Shown: positions 5,056-56,998 of the stretch, in pieces
Position numbering within the stretch: the first letter of the stretch is position 1
How the letters are laid out: each line of letters starts with the position of its first letter
Assembly: GCA_034432895.1 (NCBI GenBank)
Contig: DAOUBG010000007.1
Location: forward strand, 6,956 to 70,955
Source: Anaerolineales bacterium
Lineage (GTDB): Bacteria; Chloroflexota; Anaerolineae; Anaerolineales; Villigracilaceae
Direction of reading: 5' to 3'
Length of the DNA stretch: 64,000 nt
Program-made: the position numbers and the translations under genes
Notes under the pieces: model-generated
Told to the model about the DNA's origin: nothing
Databases searched by the model: none
Seen by the model: only the letters and a program-made list of their open reading frames with translations

Positions 5056-5080
5056 GGAAGTGTTGAAAGCATCCATCCTG

Positions 5081-5194
<114 letters not shown>

Positions 5195-5206
5195 TTGCTG
5201 GGGGTA

Positions 5207-42104: not shown

Positions 42105-42216
42105 AGGTCCTCCGAAAGGGGTAGAGAGACAATTCGATTATAACCCAAGCATCCCTTTTGTCCGTTTTGGCATAAGTTAGGGTATAATTTTTACAACTCT
42201 TTTCCTCGAGGCTTCC

Positions 42217-43029
42217 ATGGCGCTACGTGGGAATTTACGAGATTTTACGATCACCCAATTGCTCAACCTGGTCAGCTTGGCACAAAAGACCGGCACGCTC
42301 TTGATAGATGGACCGGGAAATGAACAGGCCAAAGCCAGTTTTCGCGAAGGCAAACTGGCGTATGCGCATATTGATCAGGAAGATGATCGCCTAGTTACGA
42401 TCTTGCACAAGGCTGGGAAGATCAGTGCCAATCAATATCGTGCCATCCTAGAGCGCGCCCATCAGATGAGCGATAAGGAGCTAGGCCTTTTGTTGGTCAA
42501 CGCGGGCTATCTTGCCCAGGAGGAGATCTTGCTGCTGCTCCAGGCACACTATACAGATGTGGTGCGTCGTCTGTTCACCTGGGTGGAGGGTGTTTTTCGT
42601 TTTGAAAGCGAGCTTCCTCCACCTCCCGATCGTATTCACGTGCGGATTGATCTGGAGAATCTGATCATCGAAGGCGCGCGTCAACTGCGAGAATGGGAGC
42701 AGCTGCAAGAGGAGATCCCAAGCCTGGATATGGCGCTTAAGTTTACCGATCGCCCGCTCCGGAATGTGAATTTGAGCATCGAAGAGTGGCGCGTCGTTTC
42801 ATACATCAACCCGAAAAACACCATTCGGCAGATTGCGGCAGCGAATAAAATGAACGAATTAGAGATTCGCCGCATTGTCTATGGCTTGCTTCAGGCTGGT
42901 TTGGTGGAATTGGTGCGTCCGGAAGGGGCCAAAGCGCCGGTGGCAACGCCACGCATGTTCCCCACGGAAAACCGCGAAGAGCAAAAATCTTTGATCAACA
43001 AACTCATTGGGCGTATTCGCAGCCTGTAA
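42217..43029 (+). CDS. DUF4388 / PATAN-domain protein with a C-terminal wHTH-like segment
   Basis: The N-terminus reads LRGNLRDFTITQLLNLVSLAQKTGTLLIDG...FREGKLAYAHI. The C-terminus reads NTIRQIAAANKMNELEIRRIVYGLLQAGLVELV. Confidence 0.75.
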   Translation: MALRGNLRDFTITQLLNLVSLAQKTGTLLIDGPGNEQAKASFREGKLAYAHIDQEDDRLVTILHKAGKISANQYRAILERAHQMSDKELGLLLVNAGYLAQEEILLLLQAHYTDVVRRLFTWVEGVFRFESELPPPPDRIHVRIDLENLIIEGARQLREWEQLQEEIPSLDMALKFTDRPLRNVNLSIEEWRVVSYINPKNTIRQIAAANKMNELEIRRIVYGLLQAGLVELVRPEGAKAPVATPRMFPTENREEQKSLINKLIGRIRSL

Positions 43030-43050
43030 TCCCCTGATGGAGATAGATGT

Positions 43051-43581
43051 ATGCAAACCGTAAAAATGGTCGTCACAGGTCCTTTCAATGCAGGTAAGAC
43101 GGAGTTCATTCAATCGGTGAGCGAGATCGACGTTGTCTCTACGGAGCGAAAGATCTCCAGTGCGGCTGAACGAGCGGTGAAAGAAGCGACTACGGTGGCA
43201 ATGGATTTTGGCCGTATCACGGTAGATGACGATCTGGTGCTTTATCTCTTTGGCACTCCCGGGCAGAAACGCTTTGACTTCATGTGGGAAATTCTTTCCG
43301 AGGGAATGTTGGGTTTTATTGTGCTGGTGGATTCCACCCGTCCGGAGACGTTCCGTGAGGCGCGCACCATTTTGGAGACTTTCCGGGCTTATGCTCCCAC
43401 GCCGTATGTGGTAGCAGCTAATAAGCAGGATTTGCCGGACGCGTGGGACTTGGAAGATATGCGCCATGCCTTGCGCTTGGATCCGAAGGTGAAACTCCTC
43501 CCATGTGTGGCGAAGGATAAGGAGTCGGTCAAGAAGGTGCTTTTGGAGCTTCTGTATAGCATTCTCGAAGAGATTGAATAG
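43051..43581 (+). CDS. small Ras-like GTPase of the CvnD / MglA-related (ATP/GTP-binding protein) family
   Basis: It has G1 GPFNAGKT, G3 LFGTPGQKRF and G4 ANKQD. The TTVAMDFGRI block is typical of conservon GTPases. Confidence 0.8.
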   Translation: MQTVKMVVTGPFNAGKTEFIQSVSEIDVVSTERKISSAAERAVKEATTVAMDFGRITVDDDLVLYLFGTPGQKRFDFMWEILSEGMLGFIVLVDSTRPETFREARTILETFRAYAPTPYVVAANKQDLPDAWDLEDMRHALRLDPKVKLLPCVAKDKESVKKVLLELLYSILEEIE

Positions 43582-43583
43582 CC

Positions 43584-44381
43584 GTGTCCTCGATCACAAC
43601 CGATCAGGGTATCGTTCACTACGAAGTGTATGGGCGCGGCCGGCCGGTCATCTTACTTCATGGCTGGTTGGGCTCTTGGGGGTTGTGGCAAGATACCATG
43701 ACCGTTCTGGGGCGTTTTTATCGTACGTATGCCCTCGATTTTTGGGGTTTTGGCGAATCGGGAAAGAAGCGCACCACCTATGCGGTGCAGGATTTCGTCA
43801 GCCTGGTCGATCAGTTCATGGAGCAATTGGGTATTACGCGTGCGCCGCTGGTTGGACACAGCATGGGAGGCACGGTTAGCCTATCGGTAGCGGTCGAGTA
43901 TCCTGAACGGGTGAGCAAGGTGGTCGTAGTTGGTTCGCCGATTGTCGGTTCCTCTTTGGCATTGCCTCTCAAGCTGGCCGGTTATCGCTGGATTGCTTAT
44001 TTGCTGTTCAGCAATATGCACCTTTTCCGTTGGGGATTGCGTCAGGCTTCTCCGCTGATTTGCCGCGATCCGCGTTTCCCGGATATGATGGATCGGGATC
44101 TTTCGCGCACCACCTTGGAATCATTCTTGCTCAGTATTGCCTCGCTGCGGCGCACCGATTTGCGTCCATTTTTACCTTCCATCCGCGTTCCGGTCATGGG
44201 AATTTATGGCGATAAGGATAATATTGTGCATCCGCGCCAATGGCAGCCTCTCCAAAAGGGAGTTCCGCATGCCGTGATCCGCCGCTTTCCGAAATCCGGC
44301 CATTTCCCGATGCTCGAAGAACACCAACGTTTTGTTGAAATGCTGAAAGCTTTTTTGGATGAACCGGAGGTAATGTTATGA
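43584..44381 (+). CDS. alpha/beta-fold hydrolase (paralogue 1)
   Basis: Motifs: VILLHGWLGSWGLW, the nucleophile elbow GHSMGG, the acid GDKDNIV, and His in SGHFPMLE. It has a GTG start 2 nt after the GTPase stop. Confidence 0.85.
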   Translation: MSSITTDQGIVHYEVYGRGRPVILLHGWLGSWGLWQDTMTVLGRFYRTYALDFWGFGESGKKRTTYAVQDFVSLVDQFMEQLGITRAPLVGHSMGGTVSLSVAVEYPERVSKVVVVGSPIVGSSLALPLKLAGYRWIAYLLFSNMHLFRWGLRQASPLICRDPRFPDMMDRDLSRTTLESFLLSIASLRRTDLRPFLPSIRVPVMGIYGDKDNIVHPRQWQPLQKGVPHAVIRRFPKSGHFPMLEEHQRFVEMLKAFLDEPEVML

Positions 44382-44971
44382 GTGCCATCTCTGGGGCGAA
44401 TGCAGTGACGCGTAGTTTTTGGATGGCTCTGGAAGAGATCCTGGGGCAAGAACAGGCGCAAAGAGTTGGTGAGCGTTCTCTGCAACTCTCGGATGGTTCT
44501 TCCTTTTCGCTGACGCAGCTGGCTGCTTTGCAAGGAGCATTGGAAGGCATGTATGGCATTGCAGCAGGGCGAGGGGTTGCTGTGCGCAGCGGACGGGCTT
44601 GGGTAAAGTATGGATTTCGATTGTTCTATGAAGAACTGGGATGGAACCGGATTGAATTTCGCCTATTGCCCCGTACCCATCGACTCGAACGCGGGTTGAG
44701 GGATCTGGCCAACTGGATGAATGCTCATTTGCATGAGCACTTTGAGGTGCGGCGAATTCCTGAAGGCTGGATTTGGCAGATTGAGGGTGTTCCAGGCAGC
44801 GTGGAAGCAATGGAAAGCACCCCAGGATGTTATTGGATGATCGGTGTGCTCGAAGAAGTTCTCCACCGACTGGGAGATGGGAAAATCTTCCTGGTGCGCG
44901 AGATTTCTTGTCGGGTCAGTGGTGCTCTTTCTTGTTTATTTGAAATCCCGGCCCGGCCGCTGGGAGATTGA
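44378..44971 (+). CDS. V4R (4-vinyl reductase) domain protein
   Basis: The C-terminus shows the V4R Cys pattern: GCYWMIGVLEEVLHRLGDGKIFLVREISCRVSGALSCLFEI. ATG 44378 overlaps the upstream stop (ATGA). Confidence 0.7.
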   Translation: MSAISGANAVTRSFWMALEEILGQEQAQRVGERSLQLSDGSSFSLTQLAALQGALEGMYGIAAGRGVAVRSGRAWVKYGFRLFYEELGWNRIEFRLLPRTHRLERGLRDLANWMNAHLHEHFEVRRIPEGWIWQIEGVPGSVEAMESTPGCYWMIGVLEEVLHRLGDGKIFLVREISCRVSGALSCLFEIPARPLGD

Positions 44972-44972
44972 G

Positions 44973-46247
44973 ATGCTCAAAGTTGTCTTGCACGCGCCGA
45001 ATCCGATTTTCCCGTTCCATGAGCCGGCGCGCGATCTGCGCATTCAGAATCATCCGCTTTGGCTCTGGCAACGCACCGTGCTCGCTCCGTATGTAGATCG
45101 AGAGCTGGAGCTCCGCCAAGGTCAGCCTCTTCCGCAGCGGCGCGAGGAGATGATCGTCTACCGCGATAATCTCTTTTTTGACGCGCCCTATATTGAGAAA
45201 TTCATTCAAGAAGCTCGGCGTGAGAAACGCGCGGTGCGCGCGGCTTTCTCTGCCGATGATCCGGCTTTTCGGGAACATGCTTTACCGCTTTCAATCTCTT
45301 ACACTCCTGCAGGGAACTTATATCTAGCCGATCTCTGGTACTATCCCAATGGACCTGTGCCGGATGCAGAGCCGCTGGTGATCGACTTAGAAGCTCGAGA
45401 GATCGGCTATTACCACGTTCCGAGCTATATGGCCGGCCAAACCGGTGATCTGACTTTTCAGGTTCCGCTGCGTGCCCTGATAGCTATTGATTCCTGGGTG
45501 CATATTTTTATTGCCGATATTGTTTTTGGTCTTTTTGCGCGTGGCGCTCGCTTCGAGAAGCGACTGAAGGAGAACCTGGGCTTCAAATTAAAGATCCTGG
45601 CTCGTGCTTTATATGAGGGCAAGCAACTCCTAGAGTGTTCTGAACTGGTGAAAATTGGAAAGAATTGCGTGATCGATCCGAGGGCCATTATTCACGGCCC
45701 GACGACTATAGGCGATAATGTCACCATTGGTGCCGGTACGGTGATCGAGAATTGCATTATCGGCAGCAACGTGAACATTTCTCAGGATTGCCAATTGATG
45801 CTTTCGGTTGTGGGGGATGGCACTTTTCTGCCTTTTCGCGCCTCGTTGTTTATGACCACGGTTATGGAGCACAGCATGGTGGCGCAAAATACCTGTTTAC
45901 AGATGTGCGTGGTCGGTCGCAATACGTTTATCGGTGCAGGTTCGACTTGGACGGATTATAATTTGATCCCTATTCCGATCCGTGCCCGTGATGGGCATGG
46001 CGAGTTGAAGCCGGCAAATCGGCCGGTGATGGGCGGATGTGTGGGCCATAACTGCCGAATCGGTTCGGGGATGGTGGTCTATCCGGCGCGCATTATTGAC
46101 TCGGATGTCGTTTTGGCGGCCTCTCAAGAACGGCGTGTGATCACCCGAGATGTGCTCTTTGAGGAGAGTGATCACCATCGTTGGAAACAGGGCTATTTGC
46201 ATCAGGCCCTTTATCATCGCCCCAAACCGGATGCGGAATCCTGGTGA
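44973..46247 (+). CDS. left-handed beta-helix (hexapeptide-repeat) protein with a GlmU-like degenerate nucleotidyltransferase-type N-domain
   Basis: Hexapeptide runs are present: IGKNCVIDPRAIIHGPTTIGDNVTIGAGTVIENCIIGSNVNISQDC...VGRNTFIGAGS...VGHNCRIGSGMVV. The start is at ATG 44973, 1 nt after the V4R stop. Confidence 0.7.
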   Translation: MLKVVLHAPNPIFPFHEPARDLRIQNHPLWLWQRTVLAPYVDRELELRQGQPLPQRREEMIVYRDNLFFDAPYIEKFIQEARREKRAVRAAFSADDPAFREHALPLSISYTPAGNLYLADLWYYPNGPVPDAEPLVIDLEAREIGYYHVPSYMAGQTGDLTFQVPLRALIAIDSWVHIFIADIVFGLFARGARFEKRLKENLGFKLKILARALYEGKQLLECSELVKIGKNCVIDPRAIIHGPTTIGDNVTIGAGTVIENCIIGSNVNISQDCQLMLSVVGDGTFLPFRASLFMTTVMEHSMVAQNTCLQMCVVGRNTFIGAGSTWTDYNLIPIPIRARDGHGELKPANRPVMGGCVGHNCRIGSGMVVYPARIIDSDVVLAASQERRVITRDVLFEESDHHRWKQGYLHQALYHRPKPDAESW

Positions 46248-47350
46248 TGGATACATTTGCTTTTATCATTCACCCGATCGATCCTAAGCGGGATGTCAGC
46301 CGCAAGTTTCCGTTCCTCGGCAAAGTATTGAGCGAACGGCAGATCGACTTTTTCTCTACTTTCTTTCCTCCTGTCTACATTTCGGAGATGGAAGGAATTG
46401 TTTCTGCTGACACCGGTAAAGAGATCAAGGGGTGGTTTGTAGCTTGCCCTTTGACCCCTCGGCGCATGCTGGAATTGCCGGTTTCGCAGGTGTATCAGAA
46501 AATTATCCAGACCGGACGGTTGGCCGAACGTTTGGGCGCAAAAATCCTGGGATTGGGCGCCTTCACCTCGGTGGTCGGTGATGCCGGAATCACGATTGCT
46601 CGCGCATTGGAGATACCGGTGACCACAGGCGATGCATATACGATTGCCATAGCCGTGCAGGCAACGATGAAGGCCGCCGAGATCATGGATTTGCCCCTCT
46701 CAGATGTGACTGTCGCTGTGGTGGGGGCGACCGGCGCGATTGGACGCGTCTGTGCCCATCTTTTGGCCTCGCAGGCCGGGCGCCTACTTTTGATTGCTCG
46801 CAATCCTGAAAAATTGGAAATGCTTGCAATGCAATTGAAGCCTCAGTCGTATGGAGAGGTTGTCTGGAGTACTGATCTATCCGATTTGCGGCAGGCGGCG
46901 GTCATTCTTACCGTTACCAGCGCAATTCATAGTATCATTGAGCCACAGCATTTGATGCCTGGAAGTGTAGTTTGTGATGTGGCACGCCCTCGTGATGTTT
47001 CTGCAATGGTAGCTGCCAGCAGAGATGATATATTGGTAATTGAGGGCGGCATGGTGGATGTTCCCGGTGCCGTGAACTTTCATTTTGATTTTGGATTTCC
47101 GCCCGGCAAAGCCTATGCTTGTATGGCCGAGACAATGGCATTGGCCCTCGAGGGACGTTTTGAGGATTATACTTTAGGAAAAGAGATCTCCCTGGAGCGC
47201 GTTCAGGAGATCACGCGAATCGCTGAGAAACACGGTTTTCGTTTGAGCGGCTTTCGCGCCTTTGAAAAAAACGTGACCGAAGAGCAAATTGAAACGGTCA
47301 AACAGAAGGCGCGATGGAAGCGTGCCGCAGCGAAGCATTCGTCGATCTGA
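46247..47350 (+). CDS. acyl-ACP reductase (AAR)-like NAD(P)-dependent oxidoreductase
   Basis: The protein is collinear with my recollection of cyanobacterial AAR: FAFIIHP, LGLGAFTSVVGD, TTGDAYT, VAVVGATGAIGRVCAHLL, and YACMAETMALALEG with the putative catalytic Cys retained, then ITRIAEKHGFR. The start overlaps the upstream stop (TGATG). Confidence 0.7.
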   Translation: MDTFAFIIHPIDPKRDVSRKFPFLGKVLSERQIDFFSTFFPPVYISEMEGIVSADTGKEIKGWFVACPLTPRRMLELPVSQVYQKIIQTGRLAERLGAKILGLGAFTSVVGDAGITIARALEIPVTTGDAYTIAIAVQATMKAAEIMDLPLSDVTVAVVGATGAIGRVCAHLLASQAGRLLLIARNPEKLEMLAMQLKPQSYGEVVWSTDLSDLRQAAVILTVTSAIHSIIEPQHLMPGSVVCDVARPRDVSAMVAASRDDILVIEGGMVDVPGAVNFHFDFGFPPGKAYACMAETMALALEGRFEDYTLGKEISLERVQEITRIAEKHGFRLSGFRAFEKNVTEEQIETVKQKARWKRAAAKHSSI

Positions 47351-47371
47351 AATCCTCTGCAGGAGGTTCTC

Positions 47372-48274
47372 ATGGGAAAAGCTCGTTTGCTCATTGTGGA
47401 AGATGATCCCGACATTGCCAACATGCTCAAAATCTATTTCACCAGCTTGGATTATGATGTGGAGATCGCCCCTCGAGGTAGGGATGCTCTTGAAAAGACG
47501 CGCCAGGGAATGCCTCATCTCATCATCTTGGATATCATGCTTCCGGATATTGATGGTTACGAGGTATGTCGCACGCTGCGCATGAATACGCGCACTAGTC
47601 ATATTCCGGTGATCTTCCTGACCCAAAAGGATGAACGCAGCGACAAATTACAGGGTCTAGAACTGGGAGCGGATGACTACATTACCAAACCCTTTGATAT
47701 TGAGGAGTTAAAACTGCGTGTCCAGGGTGCCATCCGACGGGCAGAGCGCGAAAGCTTGACCGATCCGCGTTCCGGTTTACCTGCAGGGCGGTTGATCGAG
47801 GATCAACTACGGCGCATCATCCGAGAAAAAGGTTGGGCTTTGCTCGATATCCGCATTAATCACTTTGAAGCCTTTCGCGATGTCTATGGGTTTGTGGCCG
47901 GTGACGATGTGCTGCGCTTTACGGCTATGCTCTTAAGCGAGGTCGTGGATGAACTGGGCACGCCGGATGATTTTATTGGCCATCCGGGAGGAGATAACTT
48001 TATTATTATTACATCTGAGATAGCAGCCCCCAGCATTAAACAGCGGTTGAAAACACGCTTTGCTGAGGAGGTGCTTTCACATTATAACTTTATCGATCGT
48101 CAACAAGGCTTTATGGTGGCGCCTAACAAGGATGGTGTGTTGGAAAAAGTACCTTTTATGAACCTGGCGATCGGTATTTTGCCTTCTACGGAGCATACGT
48201 TTACCGACATTCGCGAAATCACCGAAATGGCGGCTGAAATGCGGCGTCAGGATGTGACATCCAGCCCGGCGTGA
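47372..48274 (+). CDS. response regulator with a degenerate GGDEF output domain
   Basis: It has a REC domain (LLIVEDDPDI...ILDIMLPDIDG...GADDYITKPF) and a GGDEF-like domain whose signature is GGDNF. The upstream FKxxNDxxGH block reads FEAFRDVYGF. Confidence 0.85.
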   Translation: MGKARLLIVEDDPDIANMLKIYFTSLDYDVEIAPRGRDALEKTRQGMPHLIILDIMLPDIDGYEVCRTLRMNTRTSHIPVIFLTQKDERSDKLQGLELGADDYITKPFDIEELKLRVQGAIRRAERESLTDPRSGLPAGRLIEDQLRRIIREKGWALLDIRINHFEAFRDVYGFVAGDDVLRFTAMLLSEVVDELGTPDDFIGHPGGDNFIIITSEIAAPSIKQRLKTRFAEEVLSHYNFIDRQQGFMVAPNKDGVLEKVPFMNLAIGILPSTEHTFTDIREITEMAAEMRRQDVTSSPA

Positions 48275-48293
48275 GATCGTTTGAGATCGGATT

Positions 48294-51200
48294 ATGTTTG
48301 CTAATTTGGGCATTGGACTTACTCTACTCATATCAGGGCTTGGGATCATGCTCTTAATCATCGGCGCTGTGAATTTGTTGCAGCGGCAACAGAGACGCAC
48401 GCCGAGTTCTCCATCCTTTTCTTTGTCTGAAATCTCCGTTGGAGAGGGGCAGGAGGGCATTCTAATTCTGGTGGGAGGTAGGGTTGAATATATCAATGCC
48501 CAAGCGCGTGCCCTTTTTGGCTTGGCGGAAGATGAGTTCCCTGATCTGGAGCGCCTCACGCGCCGTGCCCGTCCGGCCGAAGATTTTCTCGACCTGTGTG
48601 CTTTGCCATCGGAGAAATACTTCACGGTCAATGGTCAACGAGTAGAGGCCCATTCTTATGCTTTGCCTCTTTTTACTGCTGCCACTTTTGTTCGTTTACG
48701 CCCTTTAGAATCCGCCGATACGATTGAAACGCAGAGTGTTCTCAGGGCGTTCATGGAATTTATTCAGGAGATCGGCACGGAAACGAACCTTCCGGATGGT
48801 TTGCAAAAGATTGCTTATCACTTAGCCCACTTTTTTGCCTATGAGTTCCTAGAAATTAAACTTTGGCATCCTGAGCGCGAAGAATGGACTCTTTACACGT
48901 TTAGCGAACGAGATCAATATTTGCCTCGCTCTATTGCGTTCGATGCTTCGCGCTTTGGCGCACAATATCTGAGGCTTTCTTCTGAAAATCCCATACTGGT
49001 TTCTTTTGTCGATGAGTCCTCGGATGCGCCTATTCGTTCTTATCTTGGTCTGTTTTTGGAAATAGGAGGGGAGAAGATTGGGGTACTAGAAATGGGGGCG
49101 TTAGCAGTAGATCGATTTAGTGAAAAAGACGCGCATTTCCTTCAAATGCTGAGAATTCCTCTCAGCATCGCGTTGCACAATATTCTCAAGCAGGAAACAT
49201 TACAACGCCGTTTGGAAGAACTAAGCGGACCGGTTCATTTGGCCCAGGCAATCGGAGCAATCCAAGAACCACAGGAACTGTTTTCACGCTTGATCGAGCA
49301 TCTGCGTCCGTTCTTTCCTGCCGAAGTGCTCGGATTCCTGTTGTATGATGCGGAACGAAATCTGCTTTACGCTCAAAAACCCTTCTATGGCCTACCGGAG
49401 CATATTATCGATATCTATCACGCCATTGTTCCCATTGGCAGCCAGGGTGAAAAGTTGCTCGGAAGACATGATATTGCTTTTACGGCCGATCCGGGAAGTG
49501 ATCCGCTTTGGGTGAGCTTGGGAATTCACACGGTGGCATTAGCAGCCAGTTTGCGTAATGCCGTCCTGGCACCGCTGGTTTCAGGGGAAGAATTCATCGG
49601 CTATTTGCAGATTGCCAATTATCGAGAGGAGACTCCGTTTTCGGATGAGGAGAAACGTGTTCTCGAAAGCTTGATGCCGCAGATCACCAGCATTGTGAAG
49701 GGTGCTCTGTTGGTGCAGCAAGCGCGTCAGCGCTTCCAACGTACTGAGGCACTTCGAAGGATCGCCCAGCTGGTTGTTTCAGAGGTGCCTTTAGATGAGA
49801 TCCTCAAGTTTTCTTTGCAAGAGATGGCACGCCTTTTTCAGGCCGATTTTGGTGCCATCTATTTGCTGGATGAGGAGCGCGGTCGCCTAATCTTACATCG
49901 GCTTTCGTTGTGGAATGTTTCTCCCGAACAAGCAACGCATCTCGAAGAATTGTATCTGGGACAAGATTACTATCACACCATTTCCGGCGCACAATGTCCC
50001 TTTATCTCGAGTTATTTGAGCCGTGATGAGCGCGTACTGCCGCTCTATCGTGGGATTGTTGAACGTTTTGGGGTAGAGTCCTCTATGGTCGTCCCTTTGA
50101 TTGCGCGTGGTCGGAGCCTGGGGGAATTGATGTTGGGGAAAAAGGCCACCAACGCCTTTCGCCATGAGGACCTACAGGTATTGTTAACGGCTGTCAGCCA
50201 ATTGGCTAGTGCTATTGAGAGTCGTCGTCTGTATGGCCTGACAGACGAAGCATTGCAACGCCGCTTGGACCTTTTTTCTGCAATGACCCGTATTACCCGT
50301 GAGTTGCATGTTGTTTTGGATGTTAAGCGGGTGATGCGGGTGATTCACGACGAAAGCTTACGGTTGTTGAAGGCCGATTGTGGTTCGATTTACCTTTTGG
50401 TCGAAAATGGCTCTGAGGCTTCGCCACGCTTTGAGCGGCTTTTCGGGTGTGAAATGGAATCCTTGCTTCCTTATGAAATCGAAGCGATCCAGAAACGAGA
50501 AACCCTATTCCTGGATTTTTCTCAAAAGGAAACTTCTCTTTCGCCGCACGAGGAAGTGCGTTCAGCGTTGGTCTCTCCGATCCTGTATGGGGATCGGGCG
50601 ATCGGTTTGCTCGATCTTCACTTTCACCGTCGTCGTTCTGTAGATGAAGACACCATCCAGATTCTTGAAATGTTAGCCGCTCAAGCCGGGATTGCCTTGG
50701 TCAATGCCCGCGCCTACGCAAAAGAGCTGGAACAGGCCGCCCTTTTCCGTATCCGTGCTCAGGCGCTCCAGGAACTGGAATCCTTGAACCGGCGACTGAG
50801 TGCAACTTCTTCGCTGGAAGAAGCTTTGCATGAGGTGGCCGTTTCGATCACTCGTGTCTCGCCGTTTGACGTGGCGCTGATTAGCGTTTATCAGCCCCAA
50901 GAAGGAATGTTGCGCCGTGTGGCTGGAGTGGGGATTGCACCGGAAACGATGCGGGAACTATTGCTCAGGCATCAGCCCTGGGAAGCCTTACAGACCTTAT
51001 TACGACCGGAATTTCGGATTGAGCAGGCTTATTTCATTCCTGCCGAGCAAATGCCGGTCATTCCTCCTGAAGTGCACACGGTTACCCTGGCTACGGCCGC
51101 TTCTGAATCCCAGGCAAATGTCTGGAACCCTGAAGATTTCCTGCTCTTTCCGCTTTTGGATGCCGATGGGAGCCCGGTAGGTCTGATCAGTGTGGATATG

Positions 51201-54200
51201 CCGCGTGACAAGCGTCGCCCGGATCGGGTGACCATCGAGGTAATTCAAGCCTTCGCTGCCCAGGCGACGCGCTGGATTTTGCACTTCCGGCGGTTAGAAG
51301 AGGCGCAAACGGAAGTTGAACGGACGCAGATCGCCTTGCAGCGTCAGCAGATGCTGTTCTCGGTGGCGCAAGGACAATTACCGGTTCTGTTGCATAACGA
51401 TCTGGAGCATGTTCTGTCATTGCACGCGCTGGAAAGCCGGCAGCGTCGTATTCGCGCGATCTTGACGATTACCGAGGTGGTCAGCCGTCAGCCGGATGTT
51501 AATATGGCATTGACCCAATTGGGACGGGAACTGCTCACCCGTCTGGAGATGAGCACAGTGCTGGTGGCCGAAGCGAGCGCTGAGGGACCTGTGCTGCGCC
51601 AAGTTTTCGGACAGATTCCTGCAGATGCTTATGTAGAAACGCTCTTCGGCCAACGTAATCCTTTGCGCGTAGCCCTCCAAAGCGGTGAATTGATGTTGGT
51701 CTCCACTCTTGAGGAAAGCGAGGAATGGCGCGATAACCCTCTATTAAACGCTTTGAACACCAAGGGTTTCATCTGCTTACCGCTAGTGGTGGGCGAAAAT
51801 CCGAGCGCGGCCGTGCTGGCGATTAGTAACCAGCCTTTGCCGGCTTTTACCGAGGATGATCGAGCGCTCTATGCACAGGTTAGCCGACAGTTAGCCATTA
51901 TTCTCCAGAATATTTCTCTGTTCACCCAAACACGCCGCCGCTTGCAGGAAGTTAACCTGTTGTTGGAATTCAGCCGACGTATTGCTGGGGCCGGGCCGAT
52001 AGAAATCTTCGAACTTCTGTTGAGCAATGTGCGTCAGGTGATCACAGCAGCGCATGCCGGCGTGGCGTTGCTTTGGAATGAACGCGAACGCGTTTTGGAA
52101 CCTGTGGTGGCACAGGGCTATATGGATAGCAAAGCCATGCTGGCCATGCGCTATCGCAGCGGGGAAGCCTTACCCGGCCAGGTCTTTGAGAGCCGTCGAG
52201 TGCGTCGGGTGGTGGAAGTTAACTTTATGCGCGATTACCCACTGAACCCGGAGCAACTATCGCTTTATCGTCAAGCTGTTGCCCAGCGCTTACCGGTTTC
52301 GTCGTTAGTGGTGCCTATCCAAAGTGCTAATACTACTCTGGGTGTGCTTGTGTTGGATAATTTCAATCAGCCGCAAGCCTTTTCCCAGGCAGATGAAGAT
52401 CTGGTTCTCTCTCTGACACAACAGGTAACGTTGTTCCTGGAGAATATGCGCCTGTTGCAGGCCGCTCAGGAGCGTGCTTTGCAGATGGAGGCGCTTTCCT
52501 CGGCAGCCACCGAACTCACTGCACGCCTCCACCGCGAGGATATTATTGCCACCCTTCTGGATCGACTCAAGGGGATTCTTCCTTACGATGCGGCAATCCT
52601 GTGGTTGCGAGAAGGGGATCGAATGCGTGTCTGGGCGGCGCGCGGTTTTTCCGATCTGGAAGAGTATCAGGGACTTTCCCTTTCGATTCACGAGAGCGCT
52701 TTGCTCCAAGAGATGATACGGACCGGCCAACCGCTCTCAGTCGAGGATGTACGCAACGATCCACGCTTTCCACCAATGGAGGCGGCGCGTCTTTCTTGGT
52801 TGGGGCTGCCGTTGATGGCAAAAGGTGAATTGATCGGCGTGATCGCTTTGGAAAAATGGGAGGCCCATTTTTATACCCATGAGAAAATTCAGCTAGGTTT
52901 GACGTTTGCAAACCAAGCCGCGATCGCTCTGGAGAATGCCCGCCTATTTGACGAAAGCCAACAACGCGCGGCAGAACTTGATGAACGTTCTCGCCGTCTG
53001 AGCGTGCTCAATCGCCTTTCGGGCAGGTTGGCCGCAACGTTGGACGCGGATGAGATTTTACGCCTGACCGCCGGAGAGCTCTTCGGCGCGCTAAATGCTG
53101 ATTTTCTTGCGGGCATTGTCTTTGTAGAAGAACACCCGTATTTGCATTCCGTGCTTCCTTCGGGGCGGTTGGCATCCACGGAAATTTCCCCTTCTCCTCT
53201 TTTCCAACGGTTTATCGAGGGGAGTGGTGTCTTTGTGACCGAAAGGGCGGCTCAAGAGCCCGACCTGCAACCCCTTTTACCGGCATGGAGACAGGAACTG
53301 CCGTATTTGCTTGCCTTGCCTTTGATGATCGGCGAGGCCTTGCGAGCTGTCTACCTGATTCAGCGATTGAACACTCCTTTCACCGCTGCGGAGATCGAAC
53401 TGGCGCGCACCATGGCCAACCAGACCTCCATTGCTCTGGAAAACGCGCGTCTCTATCAATCTACTGTACGCACCGCCGAACGCTTTGCTATTCTGAACCA
53501 AGTGAGCGCGGAGATCGGCGCAACACTGGAGATCGAAGAACTTGCCCAAACGGTATATCAGGCTGCTACCCGTCTTTTCCCGCTGGAGGCGTTTGTCTTT
53601 GCCCTGGCCAATGAGGCCGAGCGTGTGGTGGAGGTCGCCTATCTTGTAGATAAAGGAGAAGTGCTGACTCCAATGCGGCTGAAATGGGGTCAAGGGATTA
53701 GTGGACAAGTTATCGCCGGTGGCGAGCCCATTCTGACGCATACGTTGGAGGAGAGCAGAGCCTTGCGCGCAGCACCGCGTGGCGAATTGCCCGCATCCAT
53801 TTTAGCCGTGCCTATTCGTCAGGGAGAAAAGGTTGTCGGTGCGCTTTCGATCCAGAGCTATCGTCCCTATGCTTACACCGACGAGGATTTGCAAATTTTC
53901 AGCACGTTATCCAACCAGGTGAGCGTGGCATTGCAGAATGCGCGCCTGTTTGCCGAGGCGCAGGCGCTGGCCGAAAACCTCGAACAACGGGTGCGCGAAC
54001 GTACGGCGGAACTGGAGCGCGAGAAGCGCAATACCGAAACCCTCTTGCGCATTTTCAGCGAAGTCTCTGCCACGCTGGATCTCGACCGTGCCTTACATCG
54101 TACCCTGAGCCTGCTCAACGATGCAGTGGGGGCAGAGCAAGGCACGATCATGCTTCTAAATCCGCAGGATTTTCTTCTCTACTATCGTGCTGGATATGGA

Positions 54201-55646
54201 TATGCATCTGAGCGCGCTGAGGATGCAGTCCAGAAAAAAGGCTTCCGTATTGGAGAGGGATTGGCCGGTTGGGTTGTTGCTCATCGCGAGGCTGTTTTGA
54301 TCGAAGATTTGACCAAAGATGAGCGCTGGGTTCCGACAGAGACTTCCCGAGAACATCGTAGTGCTGTCGGCGTTCCTTTGATGGTGGGCGAAAATATCTT
54401 GGGTGTATTAATGGTGTTCCATCGCCAGGTGGGCTTTTTCAACCAGGATTCCCTCAATTTGATCAAGGCCATCGCCGGCCAGGTTTCGATCGCCATCAAT
54501 AATGCCAATCTATATCAATTGATCCGTGAGCAATCCGAACGCCTGGGTTATCTCTATCGCCAGCAAGCGGAAGAGGCTAGCCGTTCTCAGGCCATCCTGG
54601 AGGCTGTGGCCGATGGTGTGTTGGTAACCGATGCCGAAAACCGTATTTCCTTCCTCAACCGCTCAGCCGAGCGCATTTTGCACCTTGAAGCGACGCGCAT
54701 TCTCGGACAATCGTTGGCGGATTTTGCTGGATTGTTCGGCAAGGCGGCTCGCGAGTGGATCAACACGATTCATCGCTGGTCCGAGGATCCCTCCTCCTAT
54801 CAGCCCGGTGAATCCTATGTGGAGCGCATTGAACTGGATGATGGACGAGTGGTACTGGTACACCTGGCGCCGGTAATCCTCCAAAACGAATTTCTAGGTA
54901 CCGTTTCTATTTTCCGTGATATTACTCACGAAGTCGAAGTGGATCGTTTGAAATCCGAATTTGTTGCCACGGTGAGCCACGAATTGCGCACTCCGATGAC
55001 TTCGATCCGTGGCTATGTGGACCTCTTGCTGATGGGCGCGGCCGGCGCTCTGAATGAGATGCAGGCGAATTTCTTGAACGTGATCAAAAGCAATACCGAG
55101 CGCTTGAACGCGCTGGTTGCCGATCTGCTCGATATTTCCCGTATCGAAGCCGGAAGGGTTATGCTTACGCCGCAGCCGCTCAACTTGCGCCACATCGCCG
55201 AAGAATCGTTGGCAGAAATCCAACGCCGCTCACAACAAGAGAATAAACCGATGACTTTCACGTTAGAAGCGGCGACACCTTTGCCTTTGGCCTTTGGGGA
55301 TATGGAACGAGTACGTCAGATCATCGGCAATTTGCTCGAAAACGCGTATTCCTATACCCCGGCCGGGGGCCGAATCCAGGTGCGCCTGCATGCTGAGGGC
55401 AACGAAGTTCAGGTAGATGTACAAGATAGTGGAATCGGCATTTCACCACAGGACCAGGCGCGCGTTTTTGAGCGCTTCTATCGTGGGGAGCATCCTCTGG
55501 TGATCGAAACTCCGGGCACCGGTTTGGGGCTTTCCATTGTCAAGCAACTGGTTGAAATGCACGGTGGACGCATCTGGGTCACCTCGAGCGGCGTGTACGG
55601 GGAAGGAAGTACATTCTCTTTCACGCTTCCAATCTATACAAGTTAG
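48294..55646 (+). CDS. membrane-anchored hybrid-size sensor histidine kinase: TM, PAS-like, 11 GAF, PAS, HisKA, HATPase_c
   Basis: The 2450-aa protein has one N-terminal TM helix. Eleven GAF-terminal helices of the form Q(A/V)(A/S)IAL-NARL(F/Y) can be counted in the translation. The H-box is SEFVATVSHELRTPMTSIRGY, with N/G boxes NLLENAYSYTP, DSGIGI and GTGLGLSIVK. Confidence 0.9.
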   Translation: MFANLGIGLTLLISGLGIMLLIIGAVNLLQRQQRRTPSSPSFSLSEISVGEGQEGILILVGGRVEYINAQARALFGLAEDEFPDLERLTRRARPAEDFLDLCALPSEKYFTVNGQRVEAHSYALPLFTAATFVRLRPLESADTIETQSVLRAFMEFIQEIGTETNLPDGLQKIAYHLAHFFAYEFLEIKLWHPEREEWTLYTFSERDQYLPRSIAFDASRFGAQYLRLSSENPILVSFVDESSDAPIRSYLGLFLEIGGEKIGVLEMGALAVDRFSEKDAHFLQMLRIPLSIALHNILKQETLQRRLEELSGPVHLAQAIGAIQEPQELFSRLIEHLRPFFPAEVLGFLLYDAERNLLYAQKPFYGLPEHIIDIYHAIVPIGSQGEKLLGRHDIAFTADPGSDPLWVSLGIHTVALAASLRNAVLAPLVSGEEFIGYLQIANYREETPFSDEEKRVLESLMPQITSIVKGALLVQQARQRFQRTEALRRIAQLVVSEVPLDEILKFSLQEMARLFQADFGAIYLLDEERGRLILHRLSLWNVSPEQATHLEELYLGQDYYHTISGAQCPFISSYLSRDERVLPLYRGIVERFGVESSMVVPLIARGRSLGELMLGKKATNAFRHEDLQVLLTAVSQLASAIESRRLYGLTDEALQRRLDLFSAMTRITRELHVVLDVKRVMRVIHDESLRLLKADCGSIYLLVENGSEASPRFERLFGCEMESLLPYEIEAIQKRETLFLDFSQKETSLSPHEEVRSALVSPILYGDRAIGLLDLHFHRRRSVDEDTIQILEMLAAQAGIALVNARAYAKELEQAALFRIRAQALQELESLNRRLSATSSLEEALHEVAVSITRVSPFDVALISVYQPQEGMLRRVAGVGIAPETMRELLLRHQPWEALQTLLRPEFRIEQAYFIPAEQMPVIPPEVHTVTLATAASESQANVWNPEDFLLFPLLDADGSPVGLISVDMPRDKRRPDRVTIEVIQAFAAQATRWILHFRRLEEAQTEVERTQIALQRQQMLFSVAQGQLPVLLHNDLEHVLSLHALESRQRRIRAILTITEVVSRQPDVNMALTQLGRELLTRLEMSTVLVAEASAEGPVLRQVFGQIPADAYVETLFGQRNPLRVALQSGELMLVSTLEESEEWRDNPLLNALNTKGFICLPLVVGENPSAAVLAISNQPLPAFTEDDRALYAQVSRQLAIILQNISLFTQTRRRLQEVNLLLEFSRRIAGAGPIEIFELLLSNVRQVITAAHAGVALLWNERERVLEPVVAQGYMDSKAMLAMRYRSGEALPGQVFESRRVRRVVEVNFMRDYPLNPEQLSLYRQAVAQRLPVSSLVVPIQSANTTLGVLVLDNFNQPQAFSQADEDLVLSLTQQVTLFLENMRLLQAAQERALQMEALSSAATELTARLHREDIIATLLDRLKGILPYDAAILWLREGDRMRVWAARGFSDLEEYQGLSLSIHESALLQEMIRTGQPLSVEDVRNDPRFPPMEAARLSWLGLPLMAKGELIGVIALEKWEAHFYTHEKIQLGLTFANQAAIALENARLFDESQQRAAELDERSRRLSVLNRLSGRLAATLDADEILRLTAGELFGALNADFLAGIVFVEEHPYLHSVLPSGRLASTEISPSPLFQRFIEGSGVFVTERAAQEPDLQPLLPAWRQELPYLLALPLMIGEALRAVYLIQRLNTPFTAAEIELARTMANQTSIALENARLYQSTVRTAERFAILNQVSAEIGATLEIEELAQTVYQAATRLFPLEAFVFALANEAERVVEVAYLVDKGEVLTPMRLKWGQGISGQVIAGGEPILTHTLEESRALRAAPRGELPASILAVPIRQGEKVVGALSIQSYRPYAYTDEDLQIFSTLSNQVSVALQNARLFAEAQALAENLEQRVRERTAELEREKRNTETLLRIFSEVSATLDLDRALHRTLSLLNDAVGAEQGTIMLLNPQDFLLYYRAGYGYASERAEDAVQKKGFRIGEGLAGWVVAHREAVLIEDLTKDERWVPTETSREHRSAVGVPLMVGENILGVLMVFHRQVGFFNQDSLNLIKAIAGQVSIAINNANLYQLIREQSERLGYLYRQQAEEASRSQAILEAVADGVLVTDAENRISFLNRSAERILHLEATRILGQSLADFAGLFGKAAREWINTIHRWSEDPSSYQPGESYVERIELDDGRVVLVHLAPVILQNEFLGTVSIFRDITHEVEVDRLKSEFVATVSHELRTPMTSIRGYVDLLLMGAAGALNEMQANFLNVIKSNTERLNALVADLLDISRIEAGRVMLTPQPLNLRHIAEESLAEIQRRSQQENKPMTFTLEAATPLPLAFGDMERVRQIIGNLLENAYSYTPAGGRIQVRLHAEGNEVQVDVQDSGIGISPQDQARVFERFYRGEHPLVIETPGTGLGLSIVKQLVEMHGGRIWVTSSGVYGEGSTFSFTLPIYTS

Positions 55647-55666
55647 GTGAGATATAGAGGTAAAAG

Positions 55667-56041
55667 ATGGCAAAAATTCTGGCTGCAGAAGACGAACGCG
55701 ATATTCGAGATCTGATCGCCTTTACCTTGCGCTTTGCAGGTCATGAGGTTACCACTGCCACGAATGGTGAAGAGGCGGTGGCAATGGCCGAACAGGTTCA
55801 GCCGGACCTGATTTTGCTGGATGTGCGCATGCCGCGTATGAATGGCTATGATGCCTGTCGTGCTATCAAAGCCAACCCACGTCTAAAGGATATACCGGTG
55901 ATTTTCCTTTCGGCAAAAGGGCAGGAGTCCGAGGTCCAGGCAGGGTTGCAGGCCGGAGCCGAGGAATATCTCCTCAAGCCCTTTGCTCCTGATCAATTGA
56001 TCGAGCGTGTGCGAGCGATTCTGGCAAAATTCGGGAAATAG
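55667..56041 (+). CDS. single-domain CheY-like response regulator
   Basis: The protein reads ILAAEDERDIRDLI...ILLDVRMPRMNGYD...SAKGQ...YLLKPF. Confidence 0.92.
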   Translation: MAKILAAEDERDIRDLIAFTLRFAGHEVTTATNGEEAVAMAEQVQPDLILLDVRMPRMNGYDACRAIKANPRLKDIPVIFLSAKGQESEVQAGLQAGAEEYLLKPFAPDQLIERVRAILAKFGK

Positions 56042-56053
56042 CTTGCTACTACT

Positions 56054-56842
56054 ATGAGCGCCATTTTGCTGGATGGTTCAATTGTGCACTATGAGGTGTT
56101 GGGGCGTGGCCGCCCCATCATCTTCCTGCATGGTTGGCTTGGCTCATGGCGCTATTGGATTTCCTCGATGCAGGTTACTTCCACCCTCTTTCGCTCCTAT
56201 GCTCTCGATCTGTGGGGCTTCGGCGATACTGCCCGTCTGAAAGAGGGATATTCGATCGATCGGCAGGCGTTGCTGGTACGCCAGTTTATGGAAAATATGG
56301 GGATCGGAAAAGTCGCGCTGATCGGTCATTCTTTGGGCGGGCTGGTAGCTTTTCGCTTCGCGGCACGCTGGCCTGAATCGGTAGACCGCATGATGGTTAT
56401 CAGCACGCCTCTTGATGCCACTGCCATTTCCCCGCGTTGGTTGAACGCTTCTTTGCCCGATCTACTCAACTGGTTGACCAGCCGTTCTCCAGAAGCGCAA
56501 AATGCTCTTTCCGATGCTCTGCGTGCCGATCCTCAAACGCTCACCGTTTCTTTCCAAACGACGAGCTTTTCTCGCCTTTTCAACGAAATGCTTCCGACTC
56601 GCATTCCTTGCCTGCTCGTCTACGGGGAAAACGATCCGGCCGTGGTTGCCCCGTTGCTTGAGCAAGTCTTCCCCCTTCCTTCGCATATTCACCAGATCGT
56701 CCTTGAAGATACTGCCCATTTCCCCATGCTGGATCAACTGGCGCTCTTTCAGCGCTTACTGGTTGATTTCCTGGCCTTGGCCTCCGGCGATAGCCCGCGC
56801 GAACTGCAATTGAAAGAGGAGTGGCGTCGCCGCGTAAGATAA
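56054..56842 (+). CDS. alpha/beta-fold hydrolase (paralogue 2)
   Basis: Its N-terminus, GSIVHYEVLGRGRPIIFLHGWLGSWRYW...YALDLWGFGDT, parallels the 43584 gene. The triad is GHSLGG, GENDPAV and TAHFPML. Confidence 0.85.
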   Translation: MSAILLDGSIVHYEVLGRGRPIIFLHGWLGSWRYWISSMQVTSTLFRSYALDLWGFGDTARLKEGYSIDRQALLVRQFMENMGIGKVALIGHSLGGLVAFRFAARWPESVDRMMVISTPLDATAISPRWLNASLPDLLNWLTSRSPEAQNALSDALRADPQTLTVSFQTTSFSRLFNEMLPTRIPCLLVYGENDPAVVAPLLEQVFPLPSHIHQIVLEDTAHFPMLDQLALFQRLLVDFLALASGDSPRELQLKEEWRRRVR

Positions 56843-56864
56843 GTTATAATAGAGCTGACAATAC

Positions 56865-56950
56865 AACGGGGAGCCTGTAGCACAGGCTGAGAGGAGCGTG
56901 TTACGCTCGACCCGCTGAACCTGATCCGGGTCATGCCGGCGGAGGGAAAA
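56865..56950 (+). promoter_or_regulatory. TPP (THI-box) riboswitch
   Basis: The sequence CGGGGAGCCTGTAGCACAGGCTGAGAGGAGCG...CGACCCGCTGAACCTGATCCGGGTCATGCCGGCGGAGGGAA matches the conserved CTGAGA and ACCTGATC-GG-TAATGCC-GCG-AGGGA blocks. A TATAAT box lies at 56845-56850. Confidence 0.9.
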
Positions 56951-56970
56951 TATGGGTTCGAATGCCATGA

Positions 56971-56998
56971 CCATCCTCCGCCGTGGAGGATGGTTTTT
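56971..56998 (+). terminator. riboswitch expression platform: terminator hairpin that also sequesters the SD
   Basis: CCATCCTCC-gccgt-GGAGGATGG is followed by TTTTT and then directly by the thiN ATG (56999). The 3' arm contains GGAGGA. Confidence 0.7.

Follow-up and report, generated by a model that had tools for sequence, protein, structure and literature searches.

A block of ten genes, here called g1 to g10, occupies positions 42217-56842 (~14.6 kb) of a 64,000-nucleotide (nt) stretch of the genome of an Anaerolineales bacterium (assembly GCA_034432895.1, contig DAOUBG010000007.1, positions 6,956 to 70,955; this whole stretch is the window). The block brings together a small Ras-like GTPase, a two-component phosphorelay and several enzyme-like proteins, and it recurs with its gene order unchanged in Anaerolineae, in over 100 species-level genomes and metagenome contigs. 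It is conserved, tightly packed and made of two modules, and the functional motifs of its signalling proteins are intact. The genes and the two features that border them are as follows (aa, amino acids):

42105-42216, + strand: divergent spacer of 112 nt upstream of g1, read from the sequence
42217-43029, + strand: g1, PATAN protein (DUF4388/PatA_N) with a helical insertion and a C-terminal region of ~100 aa (Pfam DUF4388, 98.5 bits)
43051-43581, + strand: g2, Ras-like small GTPase of MglA/CvnD type, 176 aa (ATP_bind_1, 77.8 bits; Ras, 40 bits)
43584-44381, + strand: g3, alpha/beta hydrolase with a GHSMGG nucleophile elbow, a C-terminal His and a GTG start (Abhydrolase_1, 113.8 bits)
44378-44971, + strand: g4, stand-alone protein of the V4R fold (V4R, 29.6 bits, and predicted structure)
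44973-46247, + strand: g5, degenerate sugar-1-phosphate-nucleotidyltransferase-like domain with a left-handed beta-helix, LbH (Hexapep, 54.8 bits, and structural model)
46247-47350, + strand: g6, NAD(P)H thioester reductase of the AAR/PigE-N type (NCBIfam PigE N-domain, 219 bits; AAR, 114.7 bits)
47372-48274, + strand: g7, response regulator with a receiver (REC) and a degenerate GGDEF domain (Response_reg, 104 bits; GGDEF, 43 bits)
48294-55646, + strand: g8, histidine kinase of 2450 aa with one N-terminal transmembrane helix, 11 GAF domains, one PAS, HisKA and HATPase_c (profile searches)
55667-56041, + strand: g9, stand-alone CheY-like receiver (Response_reg, 109.7 bits; conserved in 56 orthologues)
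56054-56842, + strand: g10, second alpha/beta hydrolase with a GHSLGG elbow (Abhydrolase_1; paralogue of g3)
56857-56995, + strand: thiamin pyrophosphate (TPP) riboswitch aptamer and terminator-like hairpin, the downstream boundary, outside the system

The ten open reading frames all lie on the + strand, and the gaps between them, from g1 to g10 in order, are 21, 2, -4, 1, -1, 21, 19, 20 and 12 nt. The two negative values are start/stop overlaps, ATGA at g3/g4 (44378-44381) and TGATG at g5/g6 (46245-46249). An earlier annotation of the window made without database searches (the sequence-only reading) had described these frames, tight junctions and overlaps, along with the 112-nt spacer and a TATAAT within it (42183-42188), and all are present at the positions it gave.

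Conservation of the gene order was surveyed with the g5 family. Searching one genome per GTDB species gave at least 561 matching stretches, the best 80 of which all come from metagenome-assembled genomes (MAGs) of Anaerolineales or Chloroflexota, with g5 72-97% identical. A further 66 loci came from metagenomes scanned with more distant members of the family, and many of the clusters there carry a g5 51-58% identical to that of the window. Among 138 loci with a g5 orthologue (48-97% identical), counting for each gene the loci with enough flank, the window order is kept in 83-98% of cases: 99/104 for g1, 104/111 for g2, 106/114 for g3, 115/121 for g6, 107/109 for g7 and 97/99 for g8, with g4 at 101/122, an undercount owing to its great divergence. 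Where the flank allows, g10 follows g9 in 51 loci. The order persists down to ~52% g5 identity (one locus, L095, holds all ten genes within 14 kb), and the flanks around the block vary from genome to genome. Recurrence of the order in other genomes was the test that the sequence-only reading had set for itself beforehand, and with these loci it is passed by a wide margin. One contig (L081) bears the label Syntrophothermus sp. (Firmicutes). With a g5 that shares 76% identity with Anaerolineales proteins, it is probably mis-binned.

Because g1-g4 and g6 are lost or interrupted in some loci, the tightest core of the block is g5, g7, g8 and g9 (with g10), to which g1-g4 are usually attached as a second module. 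Seven loci (L014, L044, L053, L057, L131, L144 and L147) have g5-g9 without g1-g4 upstream. The reductase gene g6 is missing from 6/121 loci that keep the remaining genes they cover, mostly with g7 directly after g5, and in L144 and L147 a remnant of g6 is all that is left; aldehyde formation is therefore not essential to the system. Rare insertions also split the block at g2/g3 and at g5/g7. At one locus (L065, 5801-8341) a DUF4062-NB-ARC-TPR (STAND) NTPase is inserted between g2 and g3, and at another (L140, 9336-14345) an opposite-strand oligopeptide (Opp) ABC transporter and a zf-HC2 protein stand in the place of g6. In L014 (4499-9670) the place of g1-g4 ahead of g5 is taken by a PDZ-GAF histidine kinase of 1337 aa and a sensor protein with a FIST domain, apparently another input module in that position.

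More distant relatives of g5 extend this picture beyond the operon. A subfamily 25-30% identical to g5 occurs at five loci in Chloroflexi and Dehalococcoidia MAGs, directly upstream of a HisKA_7TM-GAF histidine kinase in 2/5 loci (L086, 10001-13558; L088, 6821-11569) and beside an extended short-chain dehydrogenase/reductase (SDR; Epimerase/3-beta-HSD/NAD_binding_4) in 3/5, with one more nearby (the loci near an SDR or kinase being L086, L088, L089, 6928-9200, and L090, 8001-10265). A still more distant relative lies near a classical SDR. Distant members of the family thus pair with non-homologous SDR reductases and GAF kinases and not with lipid genes. These neighbourhoods suggest that the pairing of a g5-family protein with an NAD(P) reductase and a GAF kinase predates the Anaerolineae operon, and that the reductase partner of the family has been replaced by a non-homologous one.

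Rates of change differ widely among the ten proteins. Identity to a typical orthologue is ~86% for g2, 79% for g7, 77% for both g5 and g3, 76% for g9, 74% for g6, 71% for g1, 49% for g8 and ~30% for g4. The near-invariance of g2 and the strong constraint on g5 and g7 would fit proteins with many fixed partners, and the fast evolution of g4 and of the g8 GAF array would fit input elements.

The GTPase module is recognizable at the level of motifs and folds. The GTPase g2 scores well above the ATP_bind_1 cut-off of 27 bits in Pfam and carries the P-loop GPFNAGKT, the G3 motif GTPGQ (without Asp) and NKQD; its nearest PDB matches are an Asgard Arf (2.9e-9) and MglA (~1e-6). Among 70 orthologues, LFGTPGQ is kept in at least 98% and the P-loop and NKQD are also conserved, and g2 is near-invariant across species (75-92% identity among orthologues). 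Profile scores for g1 and g2 bear out the PATAN and CvnD/MglA-like assignments of the sequence-only reading. No Response_reg match was found in g1, so it is not a PATAN-REC fusion of the PatA type. Its C-terminus is weakly winged-helix-like (MarR_2, E=0.034; a MarR structure, E=0.012, from a 15-sequence profile). DUF742 was considered for g1 and set aside: profile searches gave no match, and the C-terminus returned the weak MarR-like signals just given. The hydrolase g3 keeps its GHSMGG in at least 98% of 73 orthologues.

The V4R assignment of g4, likewise proposed from the sequence, stands just below threshold in the window and is carried by its relatives. The Pfam V4R match of g4 is 29.6 bits against a cut-off of 31, in a model just 62 positions long, and PF02830 (V4R) is found in full in the g4 orthologues of two loci (L003 and L005) and in the hits P0390-P0393. 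An AlphaFold (AF2) model of g4 (predicted local distance difference test, pLDDT, 80; predicted template modelling score, pTM, 0.82) has as its Foldseek matches H-NOX (top), the phenol-sensing V4R domains of PoxR/MopR (19-20% identity) and TRAPPC3. H-NOX identity was rejected, as g4 has neither the heme-ligating His nor YxSxR and the similarity is of a fold common to V4R. Conserved Cys residues are found at 151 and 186, with a third at ~178. The gene is the fastest-evolving of the block, at 27-35% identity between genomes whose neighbouring genes show 70-90%; a word-indexed search with g4 gave 7 matches, few because the gene evolves so fast. The rate contrast inside one operon is striking, and the positions that stay fixed despite this divergence are the three Cys and a few Gly and Arg. 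An analogy with the BchO/BchJ pair (hydrolase and V4R) was also discarded: the BchO model reaches 53.6 bits where 172.55 is required, and many other hydrolase models score higher.

For g5, the predicted structure says more than the sequence matches. Pfam hexapeptide repeats are confined to residues 224-285. An AlphaFold (AF2) model made from a 38-sequence family alignment (pLDDT 88.8, pTM 0.90) matches ST0452, GMPPA/GMPPB, VTC1, GlmU and eIF2B gamma/epsilon over its full length in Foldseek, with E from 1e-13 to 1e-6; against ST0452 (E=1.3e-13, TM score 0.49-0.57) the two-domain fold is recovered. The glycine-rich GxGTR nucleoside triphosphate (NTP) loop is absent from all 38 members of the family, the N-terminus of g5 reading MLKVVLHAPNPIFPF, and g5 has no NTP_transferase match in Pfam. 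The family keeps the motif YRDNLFF, which we take to resemble the GDNIF of RmlA. Public annotations of the family include "multidrug transporter", "carbonic anhydrase/acetyltransferase-like" and "DapH/DapD/GlmU-related", none of which fits the full-length fold, and relatives in public protein collections number in the thousands.

The neighbouring g6 is a homologue of characterized reductases. Its PDB matches are 4ppm (PigE, 1e-38) and 6jzq (AAR, 2e-25), and its ACMAET aligns with the catalytic Cys motif ACFAEA of AAR; both ACMAET and the NAD(P)-binding GATGAIG (GxGxxG) are highly conserved in 77 orthologues. The N-domain of PigE reduces a thioester to an aldehyde (PMC8341465). Scores fall below the equivalog cut-offs for AAR (TIGR04058, 114.7 vs 449.7 bits) and for PigE as well. 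The AAR-like half of the lipid-reductase pair proposed from the sequence is thereby upheld, and the other half, g5 as a lipid-type LbH acyltransferase, gives way to a protein like GlmU, ST0452, GMPPA and eIF2B that lacks the GxGTR loop. The hydrolases g3 and g10 are 34% identical; the nucleophile elbow is intact in both, and GHSxGG is conserved in their orthologues. PDB matches of g3 are generic esterases and C-C hydrolases, and a receptor hydrolase of the RsbQ/KAI2 type was dismissed for g3 and g10, which match generic esterases, C-C hydrolases and epoxide hydrolases instead.

The phosphorelay proteins retain the residues expected of a two-component system: the acceptor Asp is kept in the receivers of g7 and g9, and g8 has the H-box SHELRTP, HisKA (80 bits) and HATPase_c (107 bits). 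In g7, GGDNF stands in place of GG(D/E)EF and is kept in at least 90% of 74 orthologues; the RxxD I-site is absent, and the GGDEF match spans profile positions 3-107 of 161. The degenerate GGDEF and the 11 GAF domains of g8 that had been read from the sequence were both recovered by profile searches. Of the architecture given for g8, the transmembrane helix, the GAF array, one PAS (2097-2214) and the kinase stood, and the N-terminal PAS was not detected. Orthologues of g8, taken from 66 loci, are ~49% identical and range from 1295 to 2641 aa, with ~2480 aa in most loci; the length differences between lineages reflect the number of GAF repeats. A bilin photoreceptor array was rejected for g8, whose 2450 aa include just 5 Cys and lack a CH motif.

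Signals for transcription start and stop are sparse around the block and unremarkable within it. The g1 upstream spacer has no convincing -35 box and no promoter evidence beyond the TATAAT. Inside the block, neither promoter-like sites (16 vs a shuffled expectation of 11.3±3.4) nor terminator-like sites (20 vs 18.8±3.9) are in excess, and the sole strong hairpin with a T-run is the riboswitch expression platform at 56969-56995. The TPP aptamer (56857-56964, 72.5 bits) starts 14 nt past the g10 stop, with no terminator between the two. The sequence-only reading had the block end at a new promoter and a TPP riboswitch; the riboswitch is there, and no evidence supporting a promoter ahead of it was found. 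A TTGACC-18-CAAAAT site lies within g10 (56474-56503). Either the riboswitch unit has its promoter within g10, or the thiamin pyrophosphokinase and ABC-transporter genes are read through from the ten-gene operon, in which case the riboswitch terminator at 56969-56995 would gate them.

The flanking genes are unrelated to the block: an amidohydrolase and an aminotransferase on the - strand upstream, and the thiamin pyrophosphokinase and ABC transporter downstream. The remainder of the window is made up of housekeeping genes. The segment 1479-5196 holds the gene for a 1197-aa B12-dependent methionine synthase (MetH), immediately preceded on its upstream side by a SAM (S-adenosylmethionine) riboswitch (5079-5196, - strand, 85 bits). 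G+C content is 0.60-0.64 over the first 16 kb of the window (menaquinone and shikimate genes) and 0.52-0.58 from 16000 on; the operon has the lowest values of the window (0.48-0.55), with immediate flanks at 0.57-0.59.

We favour, with about even confidence, a reading by analogy in which the block is a lineage-wide composite operon of Anaerolineae that combines GTPase and two-component signalling in two separable modules, whose enzymes handle a ligand and whose output is non-transcriptional. In the first module (g1-g4), the MglA/CvnD-type GTPase g2 would work with the PATAN protein g1, the hydrolase g3 and the stand-alone V4R protein g4. Here g1 and g4 would stand in for the Roadblock and DUF742 proteins that partner the GTPase in conservons and MglAB, and would determine which nucleotide state g2 is in or where it is located, with g4 reporting a small hydrophobic ligand as the sensor domains of H-NOX or PoxR do. 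In the second module (g5-g10), the membrane-anchored 11-GAF kinase g8 would phosphorylate the receivers g9 and g7, and the GGDNF domain of g7, predicted to be incapable of making cyclic di-GMP, would serve as a phosphorylation-controlled adaptor. Of all the genes, g5 has the closest ties to g7 and g8, and its product would most likely serve the kinase arm as a regulatory subunit that binds a metabolite or transfers an acyl group, and not as a pathway enzyme. As a putative Cys-dependent thioester-to-aldehyde reductase, g6 would join g3 and g10 in making, converting or destroying an acyl (thio)ester or aldehyde ligand. The ten proteins show no DNA-binding output domain at family thresholds, and we therefore infer that the output is post-translational and runs via the PATAN/GTPase arm, for example on envelope, polarity or surface machinery. 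PATAN is the best candidate effector because as an output domain it binds PilB1/PilC, the pilus motor, in Synechocystis (bioRxiv 10.1101/2021.06.11.447907).

Several points weigh against this reading. Its functional links are drawn wholly from conserved adjacency and family analogies. The ten genes are not an indivisible unit, since g6 is dispensable and g1-g4 are non-adjacent to the rest in some lineages. At the level of single proteins, g4 lies 1.4 bits under the Pfam V4R cut-off with a model built on eight sequences, and the winged-helix call on the g1 C-terminus (E about 0.01-0.03) is weak. The enzymes could be a regulated output rather than makers of a ligand. Finally, most described Anaerolineae are non-motile, so the analogy with PATAN and type IV pili may not transfer.

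One alternative, advanced by the sequence-only reading, is an autogenous circuit: g5, g6, g3 and g10 would make and turn over a fatty-acyl-derived aldehyde or ester, this would be detected by the V4R protein and the GAF array, and the signal would be relayed to the GTPase and the GGDNF protein. We consider it unlikely. LbH enzymes commonly take acyl-CoA or acyl-acyl carrier protein (ACP) donors, which would suit such a role for g5, yet the closest structures of g5 are sugar-1-phosphate nucleotidyltransferase/acetyltransferases and regulatory pseudoenzymes and not LpxA/LpxD. Similarly, g6 is homologous to two characterized thioester-to-aldehyde reductases and keeps their catalytic Cys, but it is far from the AAR equivalog by score and is missing from the 6/121 loci that are otherwise kept. 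The kept nucleophile elbows and C-terminal His of g3 and g10 are consistent with turnover of an acyl ligand, and the fold shared by V4R, TRAPPC3 and H-NOX does bind small ligands, palmitate in TRAPPC3 and phenols in PoxR (PMC10933270). However, no acyl carrier protein or fatty-acid gene is found in or beside the block.

About equally likely is that the enzymes are the output, with the kinase, receivers and GTPase controlling, through protein contacts, a pathway of g3, g5, g6 and g10 that modifies the envelope or a storage compound. Acylation or reduction of a precursor linked to a sugar or lipid would be one such pathway in these filamentous bacteria. With no DNA-binding domain at family thresholds, the co-encoded enzymes would be a simple target, and the enzyme genes are conserved as strongly as the signalling genes, although g6 is lost while the rest stays. 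The extended SDRs that accompany distant g5 relatives are of the nucleotide-sugar epimerase/dehydratase type, a further point in favour; however, without the NTP-binding loop g5 cannot be a normal nucleotidyltransferase, and the block has no linked pathway gene such as a glycosyltransferase or flippase.

A further and rather doubtful possibility concerns the sensor proteins themselves. TRAPPC3 (Bet3) is a member of a complex that acts on a Rab GTPase, and g4, as a homologue of the TRAPPC3/Bet3 fold, might together with the PATAN protein form a ligand-gated regulator of g2, in the manner of guanine nucleotide exchange factors (GEFs) or GTPase-activating proteins (GAPs), with g5 as a second metabolite sensor on the kinase arm. 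If true, prokaryotes would offer a precedent for the action of a V4R/TRAPP-fold protein on a small GTPase, and free-standing V4R proteins would have their first function. Finally, that the block is two or three independent operons of no common function, packed by chance and inherited vertically, is very improbable: the modules do stand apart in seven loci and unrelated genes are inserted at two junctions, but the order is kept in more than 100 species-level genomes and metagenome contigs down to ~52% g5 identity while the flanks change, starts and stops overlap at g3/g4 and g5/g6, and each module has enzyme genes set among its signalling genes.

Sediments, soils, digesters and activated sludge harbour abundant Anaerolineae, a group that is, to our knowledge, almost untouched genetically. 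A lineage-wide ten-gene operon whose GTPase is 75-92% identical between species likely controls something central to the filamentous lifestyle. The block offers a testable case of a bacterial small GTPase that lacks Roadblock, is paired with PATAN and V4R, and is joined to a classical phosphorelay. It could supply a first function for three orphan groups: free-standing V4R proteins, the GlmU-like family without an NTP loop (whose thousands of relatives are now mis-annotated in public records) and non-cyanobacterial AAR-like reductases.

Comparison with known systems places the block among, and apart from, several characterized families. The sequence-only reading knew of no described system with this composition, and the literature searched holds no published description of the gene combination and nothing that connects small GTPases with V4R proteins, GlmU-like pseudoenzymes or AAR-like reductases; Podar 2008 mentions neither GTPases nor gene neighbourhoods. 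A defence role was set aside, as PADLOC gave generic REC-domain matches alone (18-25 bits).

Single proteins of the block each have characterized counterparts. Like stand-alone H-NOX sensors, g4 is small and free-standing and shares its locus with a kinase and a GGDEF-type protein, and its predicted fold matches theirs, but it lacks the heme-ligating His and YxSxR; it has a Cys cluster as in PoxR and, unlike PoxR/MopR/DmpR, is not fused to an AAA+ activator. The likeness of g4 to TRAPPC3 is one of predicted fold, and any action of g4 on a GTPase is conjecture. With GlmU, ST0452, GMPPB and the pseudoenzymes GMPPA and eIF2B gamma/epsilon, g5 shares the two-domain architecture over its full length, a (G/R)DN(I/L)F-like motif and hexapeptide repeats; it differs in being 10-16% identical, in lacking both the GxGTR loop and the Lys that follows, and in lying inside a signalling operon. 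Homology of g6 to cyanobacterial AAR and the PigE N-domain extends over its whole length, with the same NAD(P) motif and an aligned catalytic Cys, whereas its scores lie far under both equivalog cut-offs and no aldehyde-deformylating oxygenase or aminotransferase partner accompanies it.

The closest comparisons for the block as a whole are with GTPase operons, and the conservon and MglA analogies drawn earlier, with Roadblock absent, survive. Conservons (CvnA-D) and the mycobacterial mfp conservon combine a kinase, an MglA-family GTPase and GTPase-regulating accessory proteins (PMC4316618, PMC12236503, PMC11343762). The block resembles them in having a kinase and an ATP_bind_1-matching small GTPase in one operon with no classical transcription-factor output. 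Two of four conservon features fail: the CvnD-type GTPase is present (g2), whereas Robl_LC7 has no match in the ten proteins at E<=0.01 and DUF742 has none among them, so that Roadblock/LC7 (CvnB/MfpD) and DUF742 (CvnC/MfpC) are lacking and PATAN and V4R stand in those places. The window kinase also differs in being a canonical HisKA/HATPase protein that carries 11 GAF domains and has two cognate receivers; four enzyme-like genes lie among the signalling genes, and the host belongs to Chloroflexota and not to Actinomycetota. PATAN genes occasionally adjoin MglA-family GTPases of groups 1 and 5, Chloroflexi included (Wuichet and Sogaard-Andersen 2014, PMC4316618). Like MglA (TVPGQ) and the PATAN-associated GTPases, g2 is a Ras-like GTPase without the G3 Asp (GTPGQ) and lies beside a PATAN gene. 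In contrast to MglA/MglB, the block contains no MglB (the Roadblock GAP), and no link to motility genes is seen at the cluster; in contrast to PATAN-associated GTPases elsewhere, its neighbourhood is fixed and adds a V4R protein, a hydrolase, an LbH protein, a reductase and a phosphorelay. The block is thus a new variety of small-GTPase signalling operon and not a new category.

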